Origin: Acidimicrobiia bacterium
GTDB taxonomy: Bacteria; Actinomycetota; Acidimicrobiia; Spongiisociales; UBA11373
Length of the DNA stretch: 64,000 bases
Reading direction: 5' to 3'
Assembly: GCA_040882645.1 (NCBI GenBank)
Contig: JBBEAX010000085.1
Span: forward strand, 148,801 to 212,800
The position numbers and the translations under genes are program-made. Each line of letters opens with the position of its first letter. Position 1 is the first letter of the stretch. Under the pieces are notes generated by a model. It had not been told where the DNA came from. It saw only the letters and a program-made list of their open reading frames with translations, and searched no databases. Positions 24,906-31,020 of the stretch are shown here, piece by piece.

Positions 24906-24934
24906 CGCTACCCGCTGCCCGCTACCGGCAAGAA
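24906..24934. repeat. GCGGG(T/C)AGCGGG-family repeat copy (forward orientation)
   Basis: cgctacccgctgcccgctaccggcaagaa. Confidence 0.5.
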
Positions 24935-24944
24935 GGGGCGAACG

Positions 24945-25226
24945 TCAGCCGATCCCCAGCGACGATCGAGCGCTGGCGAGCGAAACACCCTCGATCAGCA
25001 CCCGTTTGCGCCTGGTGGTCGCGCCCCTCAGCAGTACGGCCCGATGCCCGGGAAAGCGGGCCTCCAACAACCTGACCACTGCCTGGTTGGCCCGCCCCCC
25101 TTCGGGCGGCGCCGCCACCCGGATACGAAGGGCATCGCCGTGCTCACCGACGATCTCGTCCTTGCTCGCCCCCGGCACCACCCAGACCGTGACCACCGTT
25201 CCTTCAGGATGATCCGATACCACCAA
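24945..25226 (-). CDS. DUF167 (YggU/UPF0235) family protein
   Basis: 93 aa, VTVWVVPGASKDEIVG...LRIRVAAPPEGGRANQAVVRLLA pattern. Confidence 0.7.
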   Translation of the reverse strand: MVVSDHPEGTVVTVWVVPGASKDEIVGEHGDALRIRVAAPPEGGRANQAVVRLLEARFPGHRAVLLRGATTRRKRVLIEGVSLASARSSLGIG

Positions 25227-25240
25227 GTCGACCCCCAGAT

Positions 25241-25483
25241 CGCTACCCGCTGCCCGCTACCCGCTACCGGCAACAGGGCGCTACCCGCTGCCCGCTACCC
25301 GCCACCGGTAAGAACGACGTACGGTTTCGTACGAGTCTGCCCATTCTCGCTGAATGCTGAAGGCCGATTCTGCCTGGCCTCTCATGATCCACCGGATCAG
25401 CGCCCACTGTCTTGCGGGAGGCGGGTAGCGGGAGGCGGGGCGGAGCTTTCTTGCGGGAAGCGGGCAGCGGGTAGCCGGTAGCG
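25241..25483. repeat. Composite inverted array: two forward plus two reverse copies of the ~32-nt GCGGGTAGCGGG-family repeat around a ~95-bp spacer
   Basis: Copies at 25241-25275, 25279-25314, 25411-25441 (reverse complement) and 25449-25483 (reverse complement). Confidence 0.6.
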
Positions 25484-25559
25484 AAGAGCCCGACGCCCGC
25501 TCCTGTTATTCTTAGGTCAAGGCGTCGAAGAGGACGCCATCGGGTCGGGACGGGCTCAG

Positions 25560-25760
25560 CGAGCCGGCGAATGGTGTGAGGCCGGCGCCCCGGATTCGAT
25601 GGACATCACCTCTGAGCCGTGGGAAGAACGGGTCACCCCGCTTAGAACCCACCGACCTCCCCACGAGAAGGGGGCCATGAGCGGCCGTCTCCAGGCGGCA
25701 AGCCGGGTGGTACCGCGGGCGTCGAGCTCGTCCCGGCGGCACGACCGCCGACCGAGGACG
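25560..25760 (+). promoter_or_regulatory. T-box leader (isoleucine) controlling ileS
   Basis: Conserved T-box sequence GGGUGGUACCGCGG at 25705-25718. Candidate specifier AUC followed by A at 25605-25608. The start codon follows a GAGGA Shine-Dalgarno immediately downstream. ileS T-boxes are established in Actinobacteria. Confidence 0.55.
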
Positions 25761-25762
25761 AC

Positions 25763-28700
25763 ATGGCCGACTCATCGTTCGACCGGGCACCTTCGGATGT
25801 CTCGTTCCCCGCGCTCGAAGAGCAGATCCTCGACCTGTGGGATCGGATCGACGCGTTCCACGAATCGGTGCGGATGCGGCCCGAGGACAACGAGTTCACC
25901 TTCTACGACGGCCCGCCCTTCCCCACCGGGAGTCCGCACTACGGGAACCTCCTCGCCGGCGTCCTCAAGGACATCGTTCCCCGCTACTGGACGATGCGGG
26001 GGCACCGCGTCGTCAGACGTTTCGGGTGGGACACCCACGGTCTGCCGATCGAGCTGGAGGTCCAGGACGAGCTCGACCTCTCCGGGCCGTCGGACATCCT
26101 CGAATACGGCGTCGCCCGCTTCAACGAGGCCTGTCGCGTGCGGGTGATGGAGAACACCGAGGTGTGGGAGTCGGTCACGCGCCGTATTGGTCGCTGGGTC
26201 GACTTCGAGGATGACTACAAGACGATGGACACCGACTTCATGGAGTCGGTGTGGTGGGTGTTCAAGCGGCTGTGGGACGAGGGACTCGTCTACAAGGCGT
26301 TCAAGGTGCTGCCCTACTCGTGGGGCGCAGCGACACCACTCTCCAACTTCGAGGTCAACCTCGGCGAGTACCGCGACGTCGAAGACCCGTCCATCACGGT
26401 GCGACTCGCCGTGACCGAGGGCACCGGTCCGGTGCAACCCGGCGACCTGCTGCTGGTATGGACCACCACGCCGTGGACGATGCCGTCGAACCTTGGAGTG
26501 GCCGTCGGCCGCGACATCACCTACATGCGGATCGATGAGCCACTCGACGGCGAACCGGGGCGCCATTGGATCGCCGCCGATCGAGTGTCGGCGTACTGGC
26601 CGGAGGGCACCACGGGAACCGCGACGGCATCGGGTGAAGAGCTTCTGGGGACGCGCTACCGGCCCGCCTTCGACTATTTCGCCTCCCTCGCCGGTGAGGG
26701 CGCTTTCGTGGTCATTCCCAGCCCCGAGGTGTCCGTCGAGGAGGGCACCGGCCTGGTCCACATGGCGCCCGCCTTCGGCGAGGCCGACCTGGCGGCCTTC
26801 ACCGACGCCCGCCTCGACCACCTGCTGGTCGACCCGGTCGACGCCGAGGGGCGATTCACCGCGGCGGTCCCCGAGGTGGCCGGGGTGAGGGTGAAGGACG
26901 CCGACCCGGCCTTGATCAAGCTGCTCCGGGAACGCGGTGCACTGGCCCGCAGCGAGCGGATCACCCACTCGTATCCCTATTGCTGGCGCACCCACACCCC
27001 TCTCATATACAAGGCGATCCCCACCTGGTTCGTGGCCGTCGAGCGGATCCGCGACCGCATGGTGGAACTCAACGAGACCATCCACTGGGTGCCCGACCAC
27101 GTCGGGTCGAAGCGGTTCGGCAACTGGCTCGAACAGGCGCGCGACTGGGCGGTGTCCCGCAACCGGTTCTGGGGCTCATGTATCCCCGTGTGGGAGTGCG
27201 ACGGATGCGACGAGACCGTGTGCGTCGGCAGCATCGAAGAGTTGCGCGAGCGAAGCGGAGTCCTCGTCGACGACCTTCACAAGCACATCGTCGACGAGGT
27301 GACCTTCGGATGCAGTGCCTGCTCCGGGACGATGCACCGGGTCCCCGAGGTGCTCGACGTCTGGTTCGAGTCCGGGGCGATGCCATACGGCCAGAACCAT
27401 TACCCGTTCGAGAACAAGGAACGATTCGAGCGAGGATTCCCTGCCCACTACATCGCCGAGGGCCTCGATCAGACGCGGGGATGGTTCTACACGCTCGTGG
27501 TCCATGCGACCGCACTGTTCGATTCAGTCCCCTTCCGCAATTGCGTGGTCAATGGCCTGATCCTCGCCGAGGACGGACACAAGATGTCCAAGAGCCTCAA
27601 GAACTACCCGGACCCCCTGGTGCTGGTGGATTCGACCGGGGCCGACGCACTACGGGCGTACCTGATCAACTCCCCGGTGGTTCGGGCCGAGCCCCTGCGA
27701 TTCTCCGAGCGGGGGGTCCGCGAGGTGGTCCGCACCGTGATGCTCCCCTATTGGAATGCCTATTCGTTCTTCACCACCTACGCCGCGGCCGAGCGGCTCA
27801 CCGTTGATGACCTTGCCTCCGCCCCCGCCCCCGCCGACCGGCCCGAGATCGACCGGTGGATCCTCTCTGTGCTGCAGAGCCTGGTGAATCGGGTCAACAC
27901 GGAGATGGAGGGCTATTACCTGTACAACGTCATCCCCCCACTGATCGACTTCGTCGACGACCTGACCAATTGGTACATCCGCCGCTCGCGCCGGCGCTTC
28001 TGGACCGTCCGGGGTACCGACGCCGCCGACAGCCTGGCTGCCTTCGCCACCCTCTATGAAGTGCTCGTCACCTTTTCAAAGCTCATGGCCCCGGTCCTGC
28101 CGTTTGTGACCGAAGCGATGTACCAGGAGCTCGTCGTCGCCCGCAGGGCGCGGGCGGAGGACGGCCCCGCCAGCGTCCACCATGAGGACTATCCGGAATC
28201 GGACGACTCGCTGATCGACCGGCGCCTCGAGGCGGACATGGCCGCGGTGCGCGAGACGGTCGGCCTCGGGAGAGGGCTTCGGGTGACGGAGGGGATCAGG
28301 ATTCGCCAGCCCCTCGCCACCCTGACCGTCGTCAGCCACGACAGTGAGGTTCGTCAGGCAGTCGACCGGCACCGCGAGCTGGTTGCCGACGAACTCAACG
28401 TCAAGTCAGTGGTCACCTCGTCCGACGAGGGAAGCCTGGCGGTGGTCACCGCCAAGCCGAACTACCGCACCCTCGGCCCGCGCTTTGGGGCACGGATGGC
28501 CGAAGCAGCCGCGGCCATCGAGCAGCTCGCTCCTGCTGCCCTCAGCCGCATTCTCGAAGGGAAGACGATCGAGATACTCGGCGCCGAGGTGGGGACGGCC
28601 GACGTCGTGGTGGCCAGGGCGCCGAACCCCGGAGTGGCCGTGGCGAGTGGCGAGCGCCTCTCGGTCGCACTCGACACCGCCATCACCGCCGAACTCGCTC

Positions 28701-29233
28701 GGGAGGCGCTCGCCCGCGAGATCGTCAAGCTGGTGCAGGGCCAACGCAAGGATGCCGGCCTCGACGTCTCCGACCGCATCGATCTCTTTTGGGACTCGGT
28801 CTCGTCGGCCGTTGCGGCGGCATTCGAGCGCCACGCCGAATGGATCGCCTCGGAAGTACTGGCCGAAACAATCACCCGGGGCGAAGCCGGCGCGGACCAC
28901 GACGCGGCCGGAGAGCCGGTGGCCCTTCGGGTCGAGAGGTTCATCGCCAGGAAGACACCGAAACCTCCAAAGAAGGCCGCCGCCAAGAAGGTCACTCCCA
29001 AGACGAAGGGCAAAGGGGGACGCGCGGTTCACACCCTCCCCCACAACAAGGGCTGGGCCAACAAGCGCGCCGGCGCCTCCAAGGTGAGCAAGGTCTTCTC
29101 GACGAAGACCGCCGCCCAGAAGGCCGGTCGCGCGACGGCCATGCGTGAGAAGGTGGAGCACATCATCTACACCGCCGACGGGAAGTTGAGTGAACGAAGG
29201 TCGTACGGGAACGATCCACGCGGAAGGGGCTAG
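25763..29233 (+). CDS. ileS: Isoleucyl-tRNA synthetase with a C-terminal K/P-rich linker plus a DUF2188-like domain
   Basis: HYGN (HIGH-class) and KMSKS motifs plus the editing domain. The last ~100 aa are a TPKPPKKAAAKKVTPKTKGKGG linker followed by VHTLPHNKGWANKRAGASKVSKVFSTKTAAQKAGRATAMREKVEHIIYTADGKLSERRSYGNDP. Confidence 0.9.
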   Translation: MADSSFDRAPSDVSFPALEEQILDLWDRIDAFHESVRMRPEDNEFTFYDGPPFPTGSPHYGNLLAGVLKDIVPRYWTMRGHRVVRRFGWDTHGLPIELEVQDELDLSGPSDILEYGVARFNEACRVRVMENTEVWESVTRRIGRWVDFEDDYKTMDTDFMESVWWVFKRLWDEGLVYKAFKVLPYSWGAATPLSNFEVNLGEYRDVEDPSITVRLAVTEGTGPVQPGDLLLVWTTTPWTMPSNLGVAVGRDITYMRIDEPLDGEPGRHWIAADRVSAYWPEGTTGTATASGEELLGTRYRPAFDYFASLAGEGAFVVIPSPEVSVEEGTGLVHMAPAFGEADLAAFTDARLDHLLVDPVDAEGRFTAAVPEVAGVRVKDADPALIKLLRERGALARSERITHSYPYCWRTHTPLIYKAIPTWFVAVERIRDRMVELNETIHWVPDHVGSKRFGNWLEQARDWAVSRNRFWGSCIPVWECDGCDETVCVGSIEELRERSGVLVDDLHKHIVDEVTFGCSACSGTMHRVPEVLDVWFESGAMPYGQNHYPFENKERFERGFPAHYIAEGLDQTRGWFYTLVVHATALFDSVPFRNCVVNGLILAEDGHKMSKSLKNYPDPLVLVDSTGADALRAYLINSPVVRAEPLRFSERGVREVVRTVMLPYWNAYSFFTTYAAAERLTVDDLASAPAPADRPEIDRWILSVLQSLVNRVNTEMEGYYLYNVIPPLIDFVDDLTNWYIRRSRRRFWTVRGTDAADSLAAFATLYEVLVTFSKLMAPVLPFVTEAMYQELVVARRARAEDGPASVHHEDYPESDDSLIDRRLEADMAAVRETVGLGRGLRVTEGIRIRQPLATLTVVSHDSEVRQAVDRHRELVADELNVKSVVTSSDEGSLAVVTAKPNYRTLGPRFGARMAEAAAAIEQLAPAALSRILEGKTIEILGAEVGTADVVVARAPNPGVAVASGERLSVALDTAITAELAREALAREIVKLVQGQRKDAGLDVSDRIDLFWDSVSSAVAAAFERHAEWIASEVLAETITRGEAGADHDAAGEPVALRVERFIARKTPKPPKKAAAKKVTPKTKGKGGRAVHTLPHNKGWANKRAGASKVSKVFSTKTAAQKAGRATAMREKVEHIIYTADGKLSERRSYGNDPRGRG

Positions 29234-29297
29234 TGCCAGCTCTGCCAGTTTCCTGCCAATTACCAATGGCCGGAGTGCGGTGACTGGAGATCTCTTC

Positions 29298-29340
29298 TGT
29301 TGCTGGCAGCGGGAAGCGGGAAGCGGGTAGCCGGCAGCGC
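29298..29340. repeat. GCGGGTAGCGGG-family repeat between convergent ileS and yggT
   Basis: ttctgttgctggcagcgggaagcgggaagcgggtagccggcagcgc. Confidence 0.5.
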
Positions 29341-29343
29341 TCC

Positions 29344-29595
29344 CTAACAAATCACCGCAGACAGAATCCCCAAGCCGATCAGCAGGATCAGCGGCGAGAG
29401 GTCGAGGCCCATACCCCCGAGCCGTACCGGCGGTAGCAGGGCGCGAAGCGGGCGGAGCACAGGCTCGGTGACGGCGCGGAAGATGGCTCGCACCCGCGCC
29501 ACCGGATGGTCATACGAGACGGGGATCCATTCGAGCACGATCCGGGCGAAGACGACGATGCTGTATGCCTGGATGAGGAAGCAGAGGATCGTCAC
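29344..29595 (-). CDS. yggT: YggT-family membrane protein
   Basis: 83 aa, two TM helices. Conserved position after sepF. Confidence 0.75.
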   Translation of the reverse strand: MTILCFLIQAYSIVVFARIVLEWIPVSYDHPVARVRAIFRAVTEPVLRPLRALLPPVRLGGMGLDLSPLILLIGLGILSAVIC

Positions 29596-29598
29596 CGG

Positions 29599-30345
29599 TC
29601 AGGGTTCTTCCGGCGCCTGGTAGTAGCCGAGTTCCTTCAAGCGACGCTTCTCGTCCCGAGAGATGTTCACGTTGGCCGGGTTGACGAGCACCACCCCTTG
29701 CCCGATCTTTCGCATCGACCCGCCGAGGGCGTAGGTGAGCCCGCTCGAGAAGTCGACCAGCCGACGCACCATGGCCGGTTCGACGTTGCGCAGGTCGAGG
29801 ACCACCGGGATGTTCGCCCGGATGTGATCTGCCAGCACCTGCGCGTCGGTGTACGACCGGGCGACTATCACCTCGCATTCGAGGTCGGCATCCGACATGG
29901 TCCTGACCATCGGGCGATCGGCCGGCGAGAGGGTCACGCCTGCTTCCGACATCGATGGATCCGACCCGACCCTGCGGCGCCGGGTCGTCATCGGAGGCTC
30001 GACTCGGCGACCCTGTACGCCGCTCGGGGCAGGTGCCACTCGAGGCTCACCGCGACGATTGGCGGCGATACGCTCGCCGGTGGTGAGGGTCGGGTCGAGG
30101 TTGGGCTCGTCGAGCTCGCTGCGATTGCCGAGCGACACCCCGGGGCGTTGCGGTTGGCGCGCCTGCGGCTGACGGCCCTGGGCCTGCCGCGCCGTAGGCG
30201 GCCGTCCCACCGTCTGCCGGGAGGGCTCTCGGCCCGGCGGGGCGACGGGTTCCTGCTCCCAGCCCTGCGCACCGTACTGCTGCTCCTCGACGGCATCCTC
30301 GTCGACGAGTCCCAAATAGAAGAGTGTCTTCTGCCACATACTCAC
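29599..30345 (-). CDS. sepF: Cell division protein SepF
   Basis: MSMWQKTLFYLGLV N-terminus, a disordered linker, then the C-terminal SepF domain. Confidence 0.85.
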   Translation of the reverse strand: MSMWQKTLFYLGLVDEDAVEEQQYGAQGWEQEPVAPPGREPSRQTVGRPPTARQAQGRQPQARQPQRPGVSLGNRSELDEPNLDPTLTTGERIAANRRGEPRVAPAPSGVQGRRVEPPMTTRRRRVGSDPSMSEAGVTLSPADRPMVRTMSDADLECEVIVARSYTDAQVLADHIRANIPVVLDLRNVEPAMVRRLVDFSSGLTYALGGSMRKIGQGVVLVNPANVNISRDEKRRLKELGYYQAPEEP

Positions 30346-31020
30346 TGATTCAGCCCCTTTGGGGGAACGGGGTCAAAGATAGCCCGTCCGATCCGTAACA
30401 CGGTTGCACCCTCCTCCACCGCCACCTCGAAGTCATCGCTCATGCCCATCGACAGTTGGGCGAGCGCGGGATGATCCTGGCGAATCCGGTCGCGCAGATC
30501 ACGCAGCCGCCGGAACCAGGGGCGGGAGTCTTCGGGACGATCACCCAGGGGCGGGACGGTCATCAGCCCGACCACCTCGAGACCGAGAGATGTCGCGATC
30601 CGAATCAATGCGCCTGCTTCGTCCGGCGCGACCCCGCCCTTCTGTACCTCCCCGGCGAGGTTCACCTGAACCAGCACGGGCGGCGGCATCCCCGGGCCTT
30701 TGACCCAATGTTCGGCGAGGGCGGGTCGATCGAGTGAATGAAGCATGGAAACAATCGGTCGAACCTGTCGAACCTTGTTCCCCTGGAGGCGCCCGACGAA
30801 ATGCCACCGGACCCCGGCCGGGAGCAAGACCGAGCGAGCTGCGAGCTCCTGGGCTCGGTTCTCTCCGAAGTCGGCGAGGCCCTCGGCATGGGCAGCGACG
30901 ACCGCCGCGTCGTCGGCGTATTTGCTCACCCCGACCAGGGTGATATCTCGAGGATCACGTCGGGCCCTTTCAGCAGCCGCGACGATCCTGCGCCGAACTT
31001 CGGTCAGCCCGGTAGCCATG
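30342..31020 (-). CDS. yggS: YggS-family PLP-binding protein
   Basis: LVGVSKYADDAAV (PLP lysine) and LHFVGRLQGNKVRQV motifs. Start at MATGL (31020). Confidence 0.85.

Follow-up and report, generated by a model that had tools for sequence, protein, structure and literature searches.

The ileS locus of an Acidimicrobiia bacterium, contained in a 64,000-nucleotide stretch of contig JBBEAX010000085.1 (hereafter the window, always at its full length), raises the question of how and why the gene for isoleucyl-tRNA synthetase (IleS) came to continue past its usual end into a basic linker and a DUF2188 domain. The analysis described here indicates that this is very probably a real fusion, of single origin and under selection. 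A single uninterrupted open reading frame (ORF) at 25763-29233 of the forward strand encodes 1156 residues, laid out as IleS (residues 1-1059), two junction codons, a 28-residue linker rich in Lys, Pro and Ala, and the DUF2188 domain. Its C-terminal end reads ...GEPVALRVERFIARKTPKPPKKAAAKKVTPKTKGKGGRAVHTLPHNKGW...SYGNDPRGRG before the stop, the same as the last 110 residues given in the initial annotation of this DNA, and the statement made there that the frame runs past the IleS C-terminal region without a stop agrees with both the ORF list and the translation. The initial annotation had also placed the start of the added region at 28900; the extra C-terminal part itself was found as described, but it begins at 28940, as judged from unfused relatives, which stop one or two codons past the residue matching R1059.

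The synthetase portion was classed as a type-2 IleS from its match to the TIGR00392 ileS equivalog of NCBIfam (880 bits, cutoff 621, residues 11-867). Class I and editing motifs are present in the IleS body (HYGN at residue 59, the CP1 motif GTGLVH at residue 328 and KMSKS at residue 607), and the MupA and MupB mupirocin-resistance models of NCBIfam gave 651 and 642 bits, below the exception cutoff of 1900. Pfam matches on the fused protein follow one another, from N- to C-terminus, in the order PF00133, PF08264 (residues 697-851), PF19302/DUF5915 (residues 872-1058, E 2e-42) and PF09954. The last of these, DUF2188, was detected in the full protein at residues 1090-1148 with an E value of 7.4e-15 and 55 bits, against a gathering score of 22, and the tail alone matched the same model at E 2.1e-16 (55-60 bits overall, model positions 2-62 of 62). 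The scan with hidden Markov models (HMMs) thus bore out the family assignment proposed from the sequence.

Unlike the stand-alone form of the family, which has about 60-80 residues, the DUF2188 domain of the window is the C-terminal part of a 1156-residue enzyme. Of the residues conserved among DUF2188 proteins (W, G, T, A, R, A, E, the His of the I-H pair, D-G and S-Y-G-x-D-P) it has all but the His, which is replaced by Tyr (H1136Y), and it shows two further conservative deviations, V to L and I to L. An AlphaFold2 (AF2) model of 29018-29230, built on an alignment of 130 sequences, adopted a beta-beta-beta-alpha-beta-beta topology with a predicted local distance difference test score (pLDDT) of 88 and a predicted template modelling score of 0.72; a model built on an alignment of 14 sequences reached a pLDDT of 58 and was discarded.

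The linker region (residues 1060-1089) contains nine Lys, two Arg and four Pro, and neither Asp nor Glu. It had been described as histone-like, which is apt for its composition and did not extend to an HMM match, since PF07382 (HC2) was not found in the window protein at E<=0.01. The best-scoring stretch against NF011492 (PRK14900, valS) covers residues 323-1130, reaching into the linker and the start of DUF2188 (model position 1033 of 1044), and this ValS family may itself carry a basic C-terminal extension. The GC content at third codon positions (GC3) is continuous across the join, at 0.83 in the tail and 0.86 in ileS. No stop codon lies near the junction in any frame, and the fused frame remains open until 29231. 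The sole in-frame ATG, GTG or TTG between 28880 and 29070 is the GTG at 28919, which lies inside IleS. The tail therefore lacks a start codon of its own and can be produced only as part of IleS.

A second fused allele and the unfused relatives

The window protein corresponds to NCBI entry MEX1208824.1, encoded on a 250-kb contig of a metagenome-assembled genome (MAG) of Acidimicrobiia. In two large homology searches the fusion looked unique, because clustering at 90% identity had filed both fused proteins under an unfused representative of 1065 residues (P0024), and it was a look-up of cluster members that exposed the second one. Clustering at this level can thus hide fusions beneath an unfused representative, which is a warning for surveys of this kind. 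The second fused IleS, MEX0826589.1 (P0304), also has 1156 residues, carries PF09954 on record and comes from MAG GCA_040878325.1 (locus L121), where the gene order is the same; the idea that the fusion was unique to the window genome was overturned by this allele. The two proteins differ at 92 residues with no indels, and are 93% identical in the body and 79% identical in the tail. NCBI annotates both as a plain isoleucine--tRNA ligase.

In the DNA alignment (alignment A5), the fused alleles of the window and L121 read ...GTC RAG ARG followed by TTC ATC GCC ARG AAG, where the unfused L122 and L123 read ...AAG AAG followed by GCT GAG TAG. Both fused alleles share the spacer motif GCCAATYRCCAAT after the stop, which is absent in the unfused relatives, and in both fused genomes the tail is devoid of an in-frame start codon. 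A genuine in-frame fusion of a basic linker and DUF2188 to IleS, one of the two possibilities raised in the initial annotation, is upheld by this second, diverged MAG with identical junction and length.

As the window derives from a MAG, it had to be asked whether the contig is misassembled or chimeric, or whether a miscalled base deleted a stop that in truth separates ileS from a DUF2188 gene of its own. An exact-product look-up of the fused protein came back empty, though MEX1208824.1 is present in the collection; the gapped ileS..DUF2188 pattern was unmatched in JGI metagenomes; and Logan contig L085 (SRR27977658), which is 100% identical to window positions 29083-30123, spans the right junction only. 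An assembly or lost-stop error is nevertheless implausible, because it would have to recur identically in sequences 8% different in amino acids: two MAGs share junction, frame and length, with synonymous differences running through the junction. The insert also lies between two syntenic anchors, so that a chimera would need two joins, and none of the junction-flanking codons AGG TTC ATC GCC is within one substitution of a stop. The continuous GC3 and the lack of an in-frame start in either genome speak in the same direction, and an artefact of this sort is thus considered to be very improbable indeed.

The fusion is as unusual as the initial annotation had supposed. The best 120 IleS homologues are 63-94% identical and 955-1104 residues long (1049-1104 residues where the alignment takes in the whole IleS body), and not one of them has a recorded PF09954 match. 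In the ten 90% clusters that come next, the longest of 63 members does not exceed 1082 residues. The length comparison suggested at the outset gave 1061-1065 residues for the ileS products of five equally close unfused lineages against 1156 for the fused protein. The C-termini of the unfused relatives read ...GEPVALRVER and a final T, V or A, or ...VKKA and a final E or R. A scan of contigs for the fused gene returned, among the matches listed, only IleS of <=49% identity, and apparent matches past the IleS end in L006 and L010 turned out to have normal stops. Among loci L089-L120, ileS was in no case close to a DUF2188 gene.

The gene order rluD-lspA-traR-yggU, ileS, yggT-sepF-ylmE is common to the window and its relatives. 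In the DNA of six close relatives (L002, L003, L086/L087, L088, L122 and L123) convergent yggT lies 12-205 nt beyond the ileS stop, with sepF, ylmE and ylmD next in line, and a DUF2188 gene downstream of ileS is absent in all six. The initial annotation had offered a stop lost between ileS and a downstream DUF2188 gene as its other possibility, and had looked to relatives for such a separate gene 3' of ileS; the gene that follows ileS there is yggT, and with the tail lacking a start codon this possibility falls away. Compared with L086, the window is collinear over 25421-28921 at 91.7% nucleotide identity and again over 29348-31000 (L086 3726-5366) at 90.7%, and between these blocks 426 nt of the window stand in for 131 nt of L086.

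Source of the tail and selection on it

The closest relatives of the tail are free-standing Acidimicrobiia and Actinomycetota proteins of 97-152 residues, in which a K/A/P-rich basic tail is N-terminal to DUF2188. The initial annotation had likened the tail to stand-alone DUF2188 proteins of about 75 residues, and of this the family held and the bare 75-residue form did not. Identity in the core to four stand-alone proteins (P0004, P0006, P0007 and P0144) is 83-85%, and for the first three it is 85% over the aligned domain. In P0144 (MDP2623662.1), which has 97 residues, residues 4-97 align with tail residues 2-95, and longer examples are P0006 (MEX0826831.1, 146 residues) and P0007 (151 residues). 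At the DNA level, blastn homology of the tail to L004 and L001 extends from 28970 to 29231, and that to the L089 group continues through 29241. As the stand-alone relatives already carry an N-terminal basic tail, the linker came in together with the domain and did not originate at the fusion. The stand-alone genes have their own ribosome-binding site (RBS) and a GTG or ATG start, whereas the fused tail has neither start. Their basic tails reach up to about 80 residues, and the HC2 match of P0007 is weak (29 bits, cutoff 40). Between close relatives among the free genes, basic-tail length was seen to vary from about 30 to about 80 residues.

The neighbourhood of the stand-alone genes consists of (class II ribonucleotide reductase (RNR) or YjeF_N), DUF2188, (glyoxalase), an HhH-GPD glycosylase, a methyltransferase, an extracytoplasmic function (ECF) sigma factor and Ada/Ogt. 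The run of HhH-GPD, methyltransferase, ECF sigma and Ada/Ogt-type gene was observed downstream of the free gene in every sufficiently long contig, in several samples (L001 8001-8441; L004 1273-1728; L089-L096), and this neighbourhood may link the free protein to DNA-alkylation repair or chromatin. GCA_040878325.1 keeps the free gene, P0006, on another contig in the order RNR, DUF2188, HhH-GPD. Since that genome has both copies, the fused copy is a paralogue and not a relocated gene, and relocation of an only DUF2188 gene is ruled out for it. Neither a second DUF2188 copy nor its alkylation-repair neighbourhood was found in the 64-kb window.

A phylogeny built on the 204-nt core unites both fused copies in 458 of 500 bootstraps and places the long-tailed free genes as their sister group. 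Taken with the identical junction and the shared spacer, this monophyly argues that the fusion arose once. Independent site-specific insertions in two genomes, considered because fused L121 and unfused L122 are nearly identical right up to the junction, are disfavoured by the same monophyly, by the sharing of the spacer after the stop and by a synonymous divergence (dS) of the tail equal to that of the genome. A 5'-shortened or short-tailed paralogue of the free gene, which encodes an H1-like K/A/P-rich tail ahead of DUF2188, thus entered the 3' end of a housekeeping type-2 ileS in a single in-frame insertion. Lost in exchange were one or two terminal ileS codons, the stop and, of the ileS-yggT spacer, the left half. 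Microhomology between the end of ileS, GTCGAGAGG, and the donor RBS, GTCAGGAGG, was considered as a recombination site and rejected, as 13 matches in 21 bases (a hand count) is too weak.

Comparison of the window with L121 gave, for the tail, a dS of 0.324, a nonsynonymous divergence (dN) of 0.109 and a dN/dS ratio (omega) of 0.34, with 22 nonsynonymous to 18 synonymous differences (P=0.003 against neutrality, binomial). For the DUF2188 core the corresponding values were 0.363, 0.096 and 0.27 (14 to 14; P=0.0024), and for the ileS body dS was 0.29, dN 0.036 and omega 0.12. By these ratios the tail has been kept as coding sequence throughout the divergence of the two genomes, under purifying selection.

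A number of observations weigh against a selected role of the tail. The tail dN/dS values rest on 95 codons and are indicative, and the linker taken separately (dS 0.235, dN 0.144, omega 0.61, 8 nonsynonymous to 4 synonymous differences) is not significant, being inseparable from neutral. Selection restrains the fused domain about four times less tightly than it does the free gene (Fisher P=0.07), for which L001 versus L004 gave dS 0.412, dN 0.026, omega 0.06 and 4 nonsynonymous to 15 synonymous differences. Family-conserved positions have changed in both fused copies: of 155 relatives, 123 have His at position 1136 and not one has the Tyr of the window, and in L121 the motif SYGNDP has become SYAIDP. 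Finally, the distribution is patchy, with the fusion in two of about seven equally related lineages (ileS-body dS 0.25-0.45, star-like), from which it follows that IleS functions well without the tail.

Such a pattern would also be expected of a passenger, that is, an accidental in-frame insertion tolerated by IleS, with no role in aminoacylation and heading to decay or loss, in which the residual constraint reflects only selection against a misfolded or toxic appendage on an essential enzyme. The patchiness among near-equidistant lineages, the higher omega relative to stand-alone genes, the substitutions at conserved positions and the near-neutral linker would all suit this account, as would an in-frame join with a prior chance of 1 in 3 in a region where no frame has a stop near the junction. 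Against it, however, omega of the tail is significantly below 1 over a dS of about 0.3, and the linker is identical in length in both fused copies, compared with a range of about 12 to about 84 residues for the basic tail ahead of DUF2188 in free genes. Strong positive charge has likewise been retained (about +10 for the core of the window and +11 for its linker; about +9 and about +7, respectively, in L121 by hand count), as have all other nearly invariant DUF2188 residues. A mere passenger is regarded as unlikely, though it is the foremost rival.

The history of the fused allele among its sister lineages may have taken either of two courses. In the ileS body, dS among the window, L121, L122 and L086 is 0.25-0.36, and fused and unfused alleles are intermixed in a star-like protein tree; one gain with several losses, or spread and replacement by homologous recombination, would both fit these data. 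Up to codon 1059, the final 480 nt of ileS (about 28460-28939 in the window) show 96-97% identity between the fused L121 and the unfused L122, against 82-96% elsewhere, for the most part 82-94%. The simplest reading would be recent gene conversion, its tract having stopped where the heterology of the insertion begins.

Flanking DNA

Coordinates of the fused gene and of the elements that flank it are collected in the table. The conserved synteny and the T-box leader match, the latter below the gathering score, point to a regulated, housekeeping ileS; the T-box may be of the short actinobacterial ileS type.

Features of the fused ileS gene and its surroundings (window positions)
Feature	Position	Strand	Basis
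T-box leader upstream of ileS	25516..25738	+	Rfam RF00230, 59.3 bits, E 2.2e-11, full model 1-219; gathering score 93
IleS body, codons 1-1059	25763..28939	+	TIGR00392, PF00133, PF08264, PF19302; collinear with unfused relatives to their last 1-2 codons
Junction codons TTC ATC (F1060, I1061)	28940..28945	+	In the place of unfused GCT GAG TAG (alignment A5)
Lys/Pro/Ala-rich linker, residues 1062-1089	28946..29029	+	Corresponds by homology to the final part of the basic N-terminal segment in stand-alone paralogues; equal length in L121
DUF2188 domain	29030..29230	+	Pfam match 29030-29206; remainder is the C-terminal ...DPRGRG
TAG stop of the fused gene	29231..29233	+	Stop of the imported DUF2188 gene; blastn homology spans the stop
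Spacer arriving with or after the insertion	29234..29296		GCCAATYRCCAAT common only to the other fused allele (alignment A5)
Heptamer-periodic (GCGGGNA)n arm	29297..29339		Repeats D2, I1, I3; homologous to the right arm of unfused L122
yggT, right-hand synteny anchor, convergent with ileS	29344..29595	-	L086 match 90.7%; exact protein MEX1208825.1

The spacer at 29234-29296 has no match in the unfused relatives or downstream of the stand-alone genes. The heptamer-periodic arm that follows it is what remains of an ancestral hairpin in the ileS-yggT spacer, namely its right arm, and marks the right edge of the insertion. The region 29228-29350 is no more structured than shuffled sequence (z = -0.1), and a scan for terminator-like sites detected none past the stop of the fused gene.

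Repeats with a 7-nt period, (GCGGGNA)n and its complement, flank ileS at 24906-24950, 25242-25330 and 25410-25483 as well as at 29297-29339, and form long inverted-repeat pairs. Other, lineage-specific heptamers occupy the ileS-yggT spacer of relatives, namely CCTTCCG/CCATCCG in L003, GTTGCCC/GTTACCC in L088 and GCCAATC/GACTGGA in L121, and the spacer of L088 folds well (z = -3.9). These repeats look like fast-evolving elements of the repetitive extragenic palindromic (REP) or terminator type. The yggU/DUF167 gene (24945-25226, reverse strand) is inverted relative to L088, with flanking traR and ileS collinear, and is situated between 28-nt inverted heptamer arms at 24907-24934 and 25448-25475 that are 93% complementary (pair I2), which suggests that yggU was inverted by recombination between the repeat arms.

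Charge, possible role and known systems

The 95 residues from residue 1062 onwards have a net charge of +21 and an isoelectric point (pI) of 11.4, compared with a net charge of -55 for the IleS body. The linker (residues 1062-1088) accounts for +11, with a pI of 12, and the DUF2188 core, at about +10 to +11, is the most basic among 151 relatives, whose median is +3. IleS is thus translated with a 97-residue appendage of about +21, made up of a flexible basic linker and a small beta-beta-beta-alpha-beta-beta domain. In structures of IleS bound to tRNA, the C-terminal domain sits at the anticodon end of the tRNA. A tail leaving the DUF5915 domain would be a candidate for a non-specific polyanion-binding arm near that end, which would help a very acidic enzyme to bind tRNA more strongly, or would tether IleS to ribosomes or to the nucleoid.

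Appended domains on bacterial aminoacyl-tRNA synthetases (aaRSs) are uncommon, and when selectively kept they usually signal interaction with nucleic acid or with a partner. Overall, a selected fusion restricted to a small clade, with the tail as a tether to RNA or other polyanions, is the explanation that we favour, with reasonable though far from complete confidence. The specific tethering function, argued from charge and position, is put forward more tentatively, at somewhat less than even weight. Retention of the tail by selection hints that DUF2188 acts on RNA or on the translation machinery. The fusion could further be read as a Rosetta stone, whereby the very basic DUF2188 subfamily would be an RNA- or ribosome-binding module and its free members translation- or RNA-associated factors rather than proteins of defence or of the nucleoid, but we consider this rather doubtful. 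RPA3313, a DUF2188-like protein of solved structure, reportedly associates with ribosomal proteins, which would fit such a reading. If true, it would make the fused protein a bacterial counterpart of the appended tRNA-binding domains of eukaryotes, for example in channelling tRNAIle or in docking IleS to the ribosome. With its single, datable origin, a free paralogue in the same genome as an internal control and natural alleles without the tail in sister lineages, the locus offers a clean system for asking what DUF2188 does.

The tail might instead keep a role proper to DUF2188, in defence, as a HicB-like antitoxin or as a sensor, and so couple IleS to responses to phage or stress, for instance by serving as decoy, sensor or regulated inhibitor of charging. 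The family is widespread, with 627 representative clusters at E<=0.001 in the search made here, and is found in plasmids, phages and defence neighbourhoods. The tail matched the PADLOC candidate PDC-S16 (PDLC04941) with 74 bits and E 2e-21, and its match to phrog_3220 indicates that phages carry the domain. Published descriptions count for such a role and against a tether: DUF2188 has been called uncharacterised and linked to defence operons, including CapH/CapP-controlled operons and a Thoeris island (10.1101/2022.04.27.489752; 10.64898/2025.12.03.692087), and HHpred connects it with RPA3313 (PDB 5JN6) and with the N-terminal HicB domain, described as consisting of three strands and one helix, to which more strands may be added (PMC13621843). 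The papers found to mention DUF2188 contained nothing on an aaRS, and those consulted described no biochemical function.

The setting of the fused gene, however, is the conserved housekeeping region at the end of the division and cell-wall (dcw) cluster and ileS. No defence genes were found near the fused ileS, nor a toxin, cyclase or TIR gene, its neighbours being cell-division and housekeeping genes, and the stand-alone paralogues adjoin HhH-GPD, ECF sigma and Ada/Ogt genes and not defence islands. The subfamily is also atypically basic. A Foldseek search of the PDB gave at best an E value of 0.13 and a template modelling score of about 0.3 and recovered neither HicB nor 5JN6; profile and single-sequence searches of PDB sequences found no match, with HicB and 5JN6 again not recovered by the profile; and Foldseek against BFVD returned only uncharacterised phage proteins (best E 2.7e-5). 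A defence or antitoxin role of the fused tail is, on this evidence, judged improbable. Among the closest relatives of the tail (P0277, P0287, P0179/P0278 and P0289), DUF2188 was seen fused to DprA (DNA_processg_A) with HhH, to a MerR helix-turn-helix domain and to hemerythrin, and a marginal sigma-70 region 4 match was noted in one protein. Its joining to DprA with HhH, MerR and hemerythrin marks DUF2188 as a mobile module, several of whose partners bind DNA.

The window protein can thus be set beside a number of known systems. The topology described for the HicB N-terminal domain and RPA3313 agrees with the AF2 model, but the window domain has neither a HicA partner nor a C-terminal DNA-binding domain, and the relation to HicB and 5JN6 was not confirmed by the searches. 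PDC-S16 owes its candidate status to its occurrence with defence islands, whereas the window copy forms part of a housekeeping enzyme encoded in the dcw/ileS region. Closer in character is eukaryotic LysRS, in which a lysine-rich, disordered appended domain binds tRNA (PMC6213541). The fused tail and such eukaryotic aaRS extensions have in common a Lys-rich, presumably disordered, low-complexity extension on a complete synthetase. In eukaryotes this extension confers non-specific affinity for tRNA, which serves as the working model for the linker. The eukaryotic extensions, however, are mostly N-terminal, carry no globular DUF2188 and are universal in their lineages, in contrast to the C-terminal, putatively tRNA-binding tail of the window fusion, which is patchy. 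NF040702, an IleS with an N-acetyltransferase domain, provides a precedent for an accessory domain on a bacterial IleS, although that domain is a GNAT and not DUF2188, and the window protein, with 256 bits against a cutoff of 1999, is not a member. Appended aaRS domains are thus a known theme, including IleS with GNAT, and DUF2188 on IleS extends it within a small clade of uncultured Acidimicrobiia.

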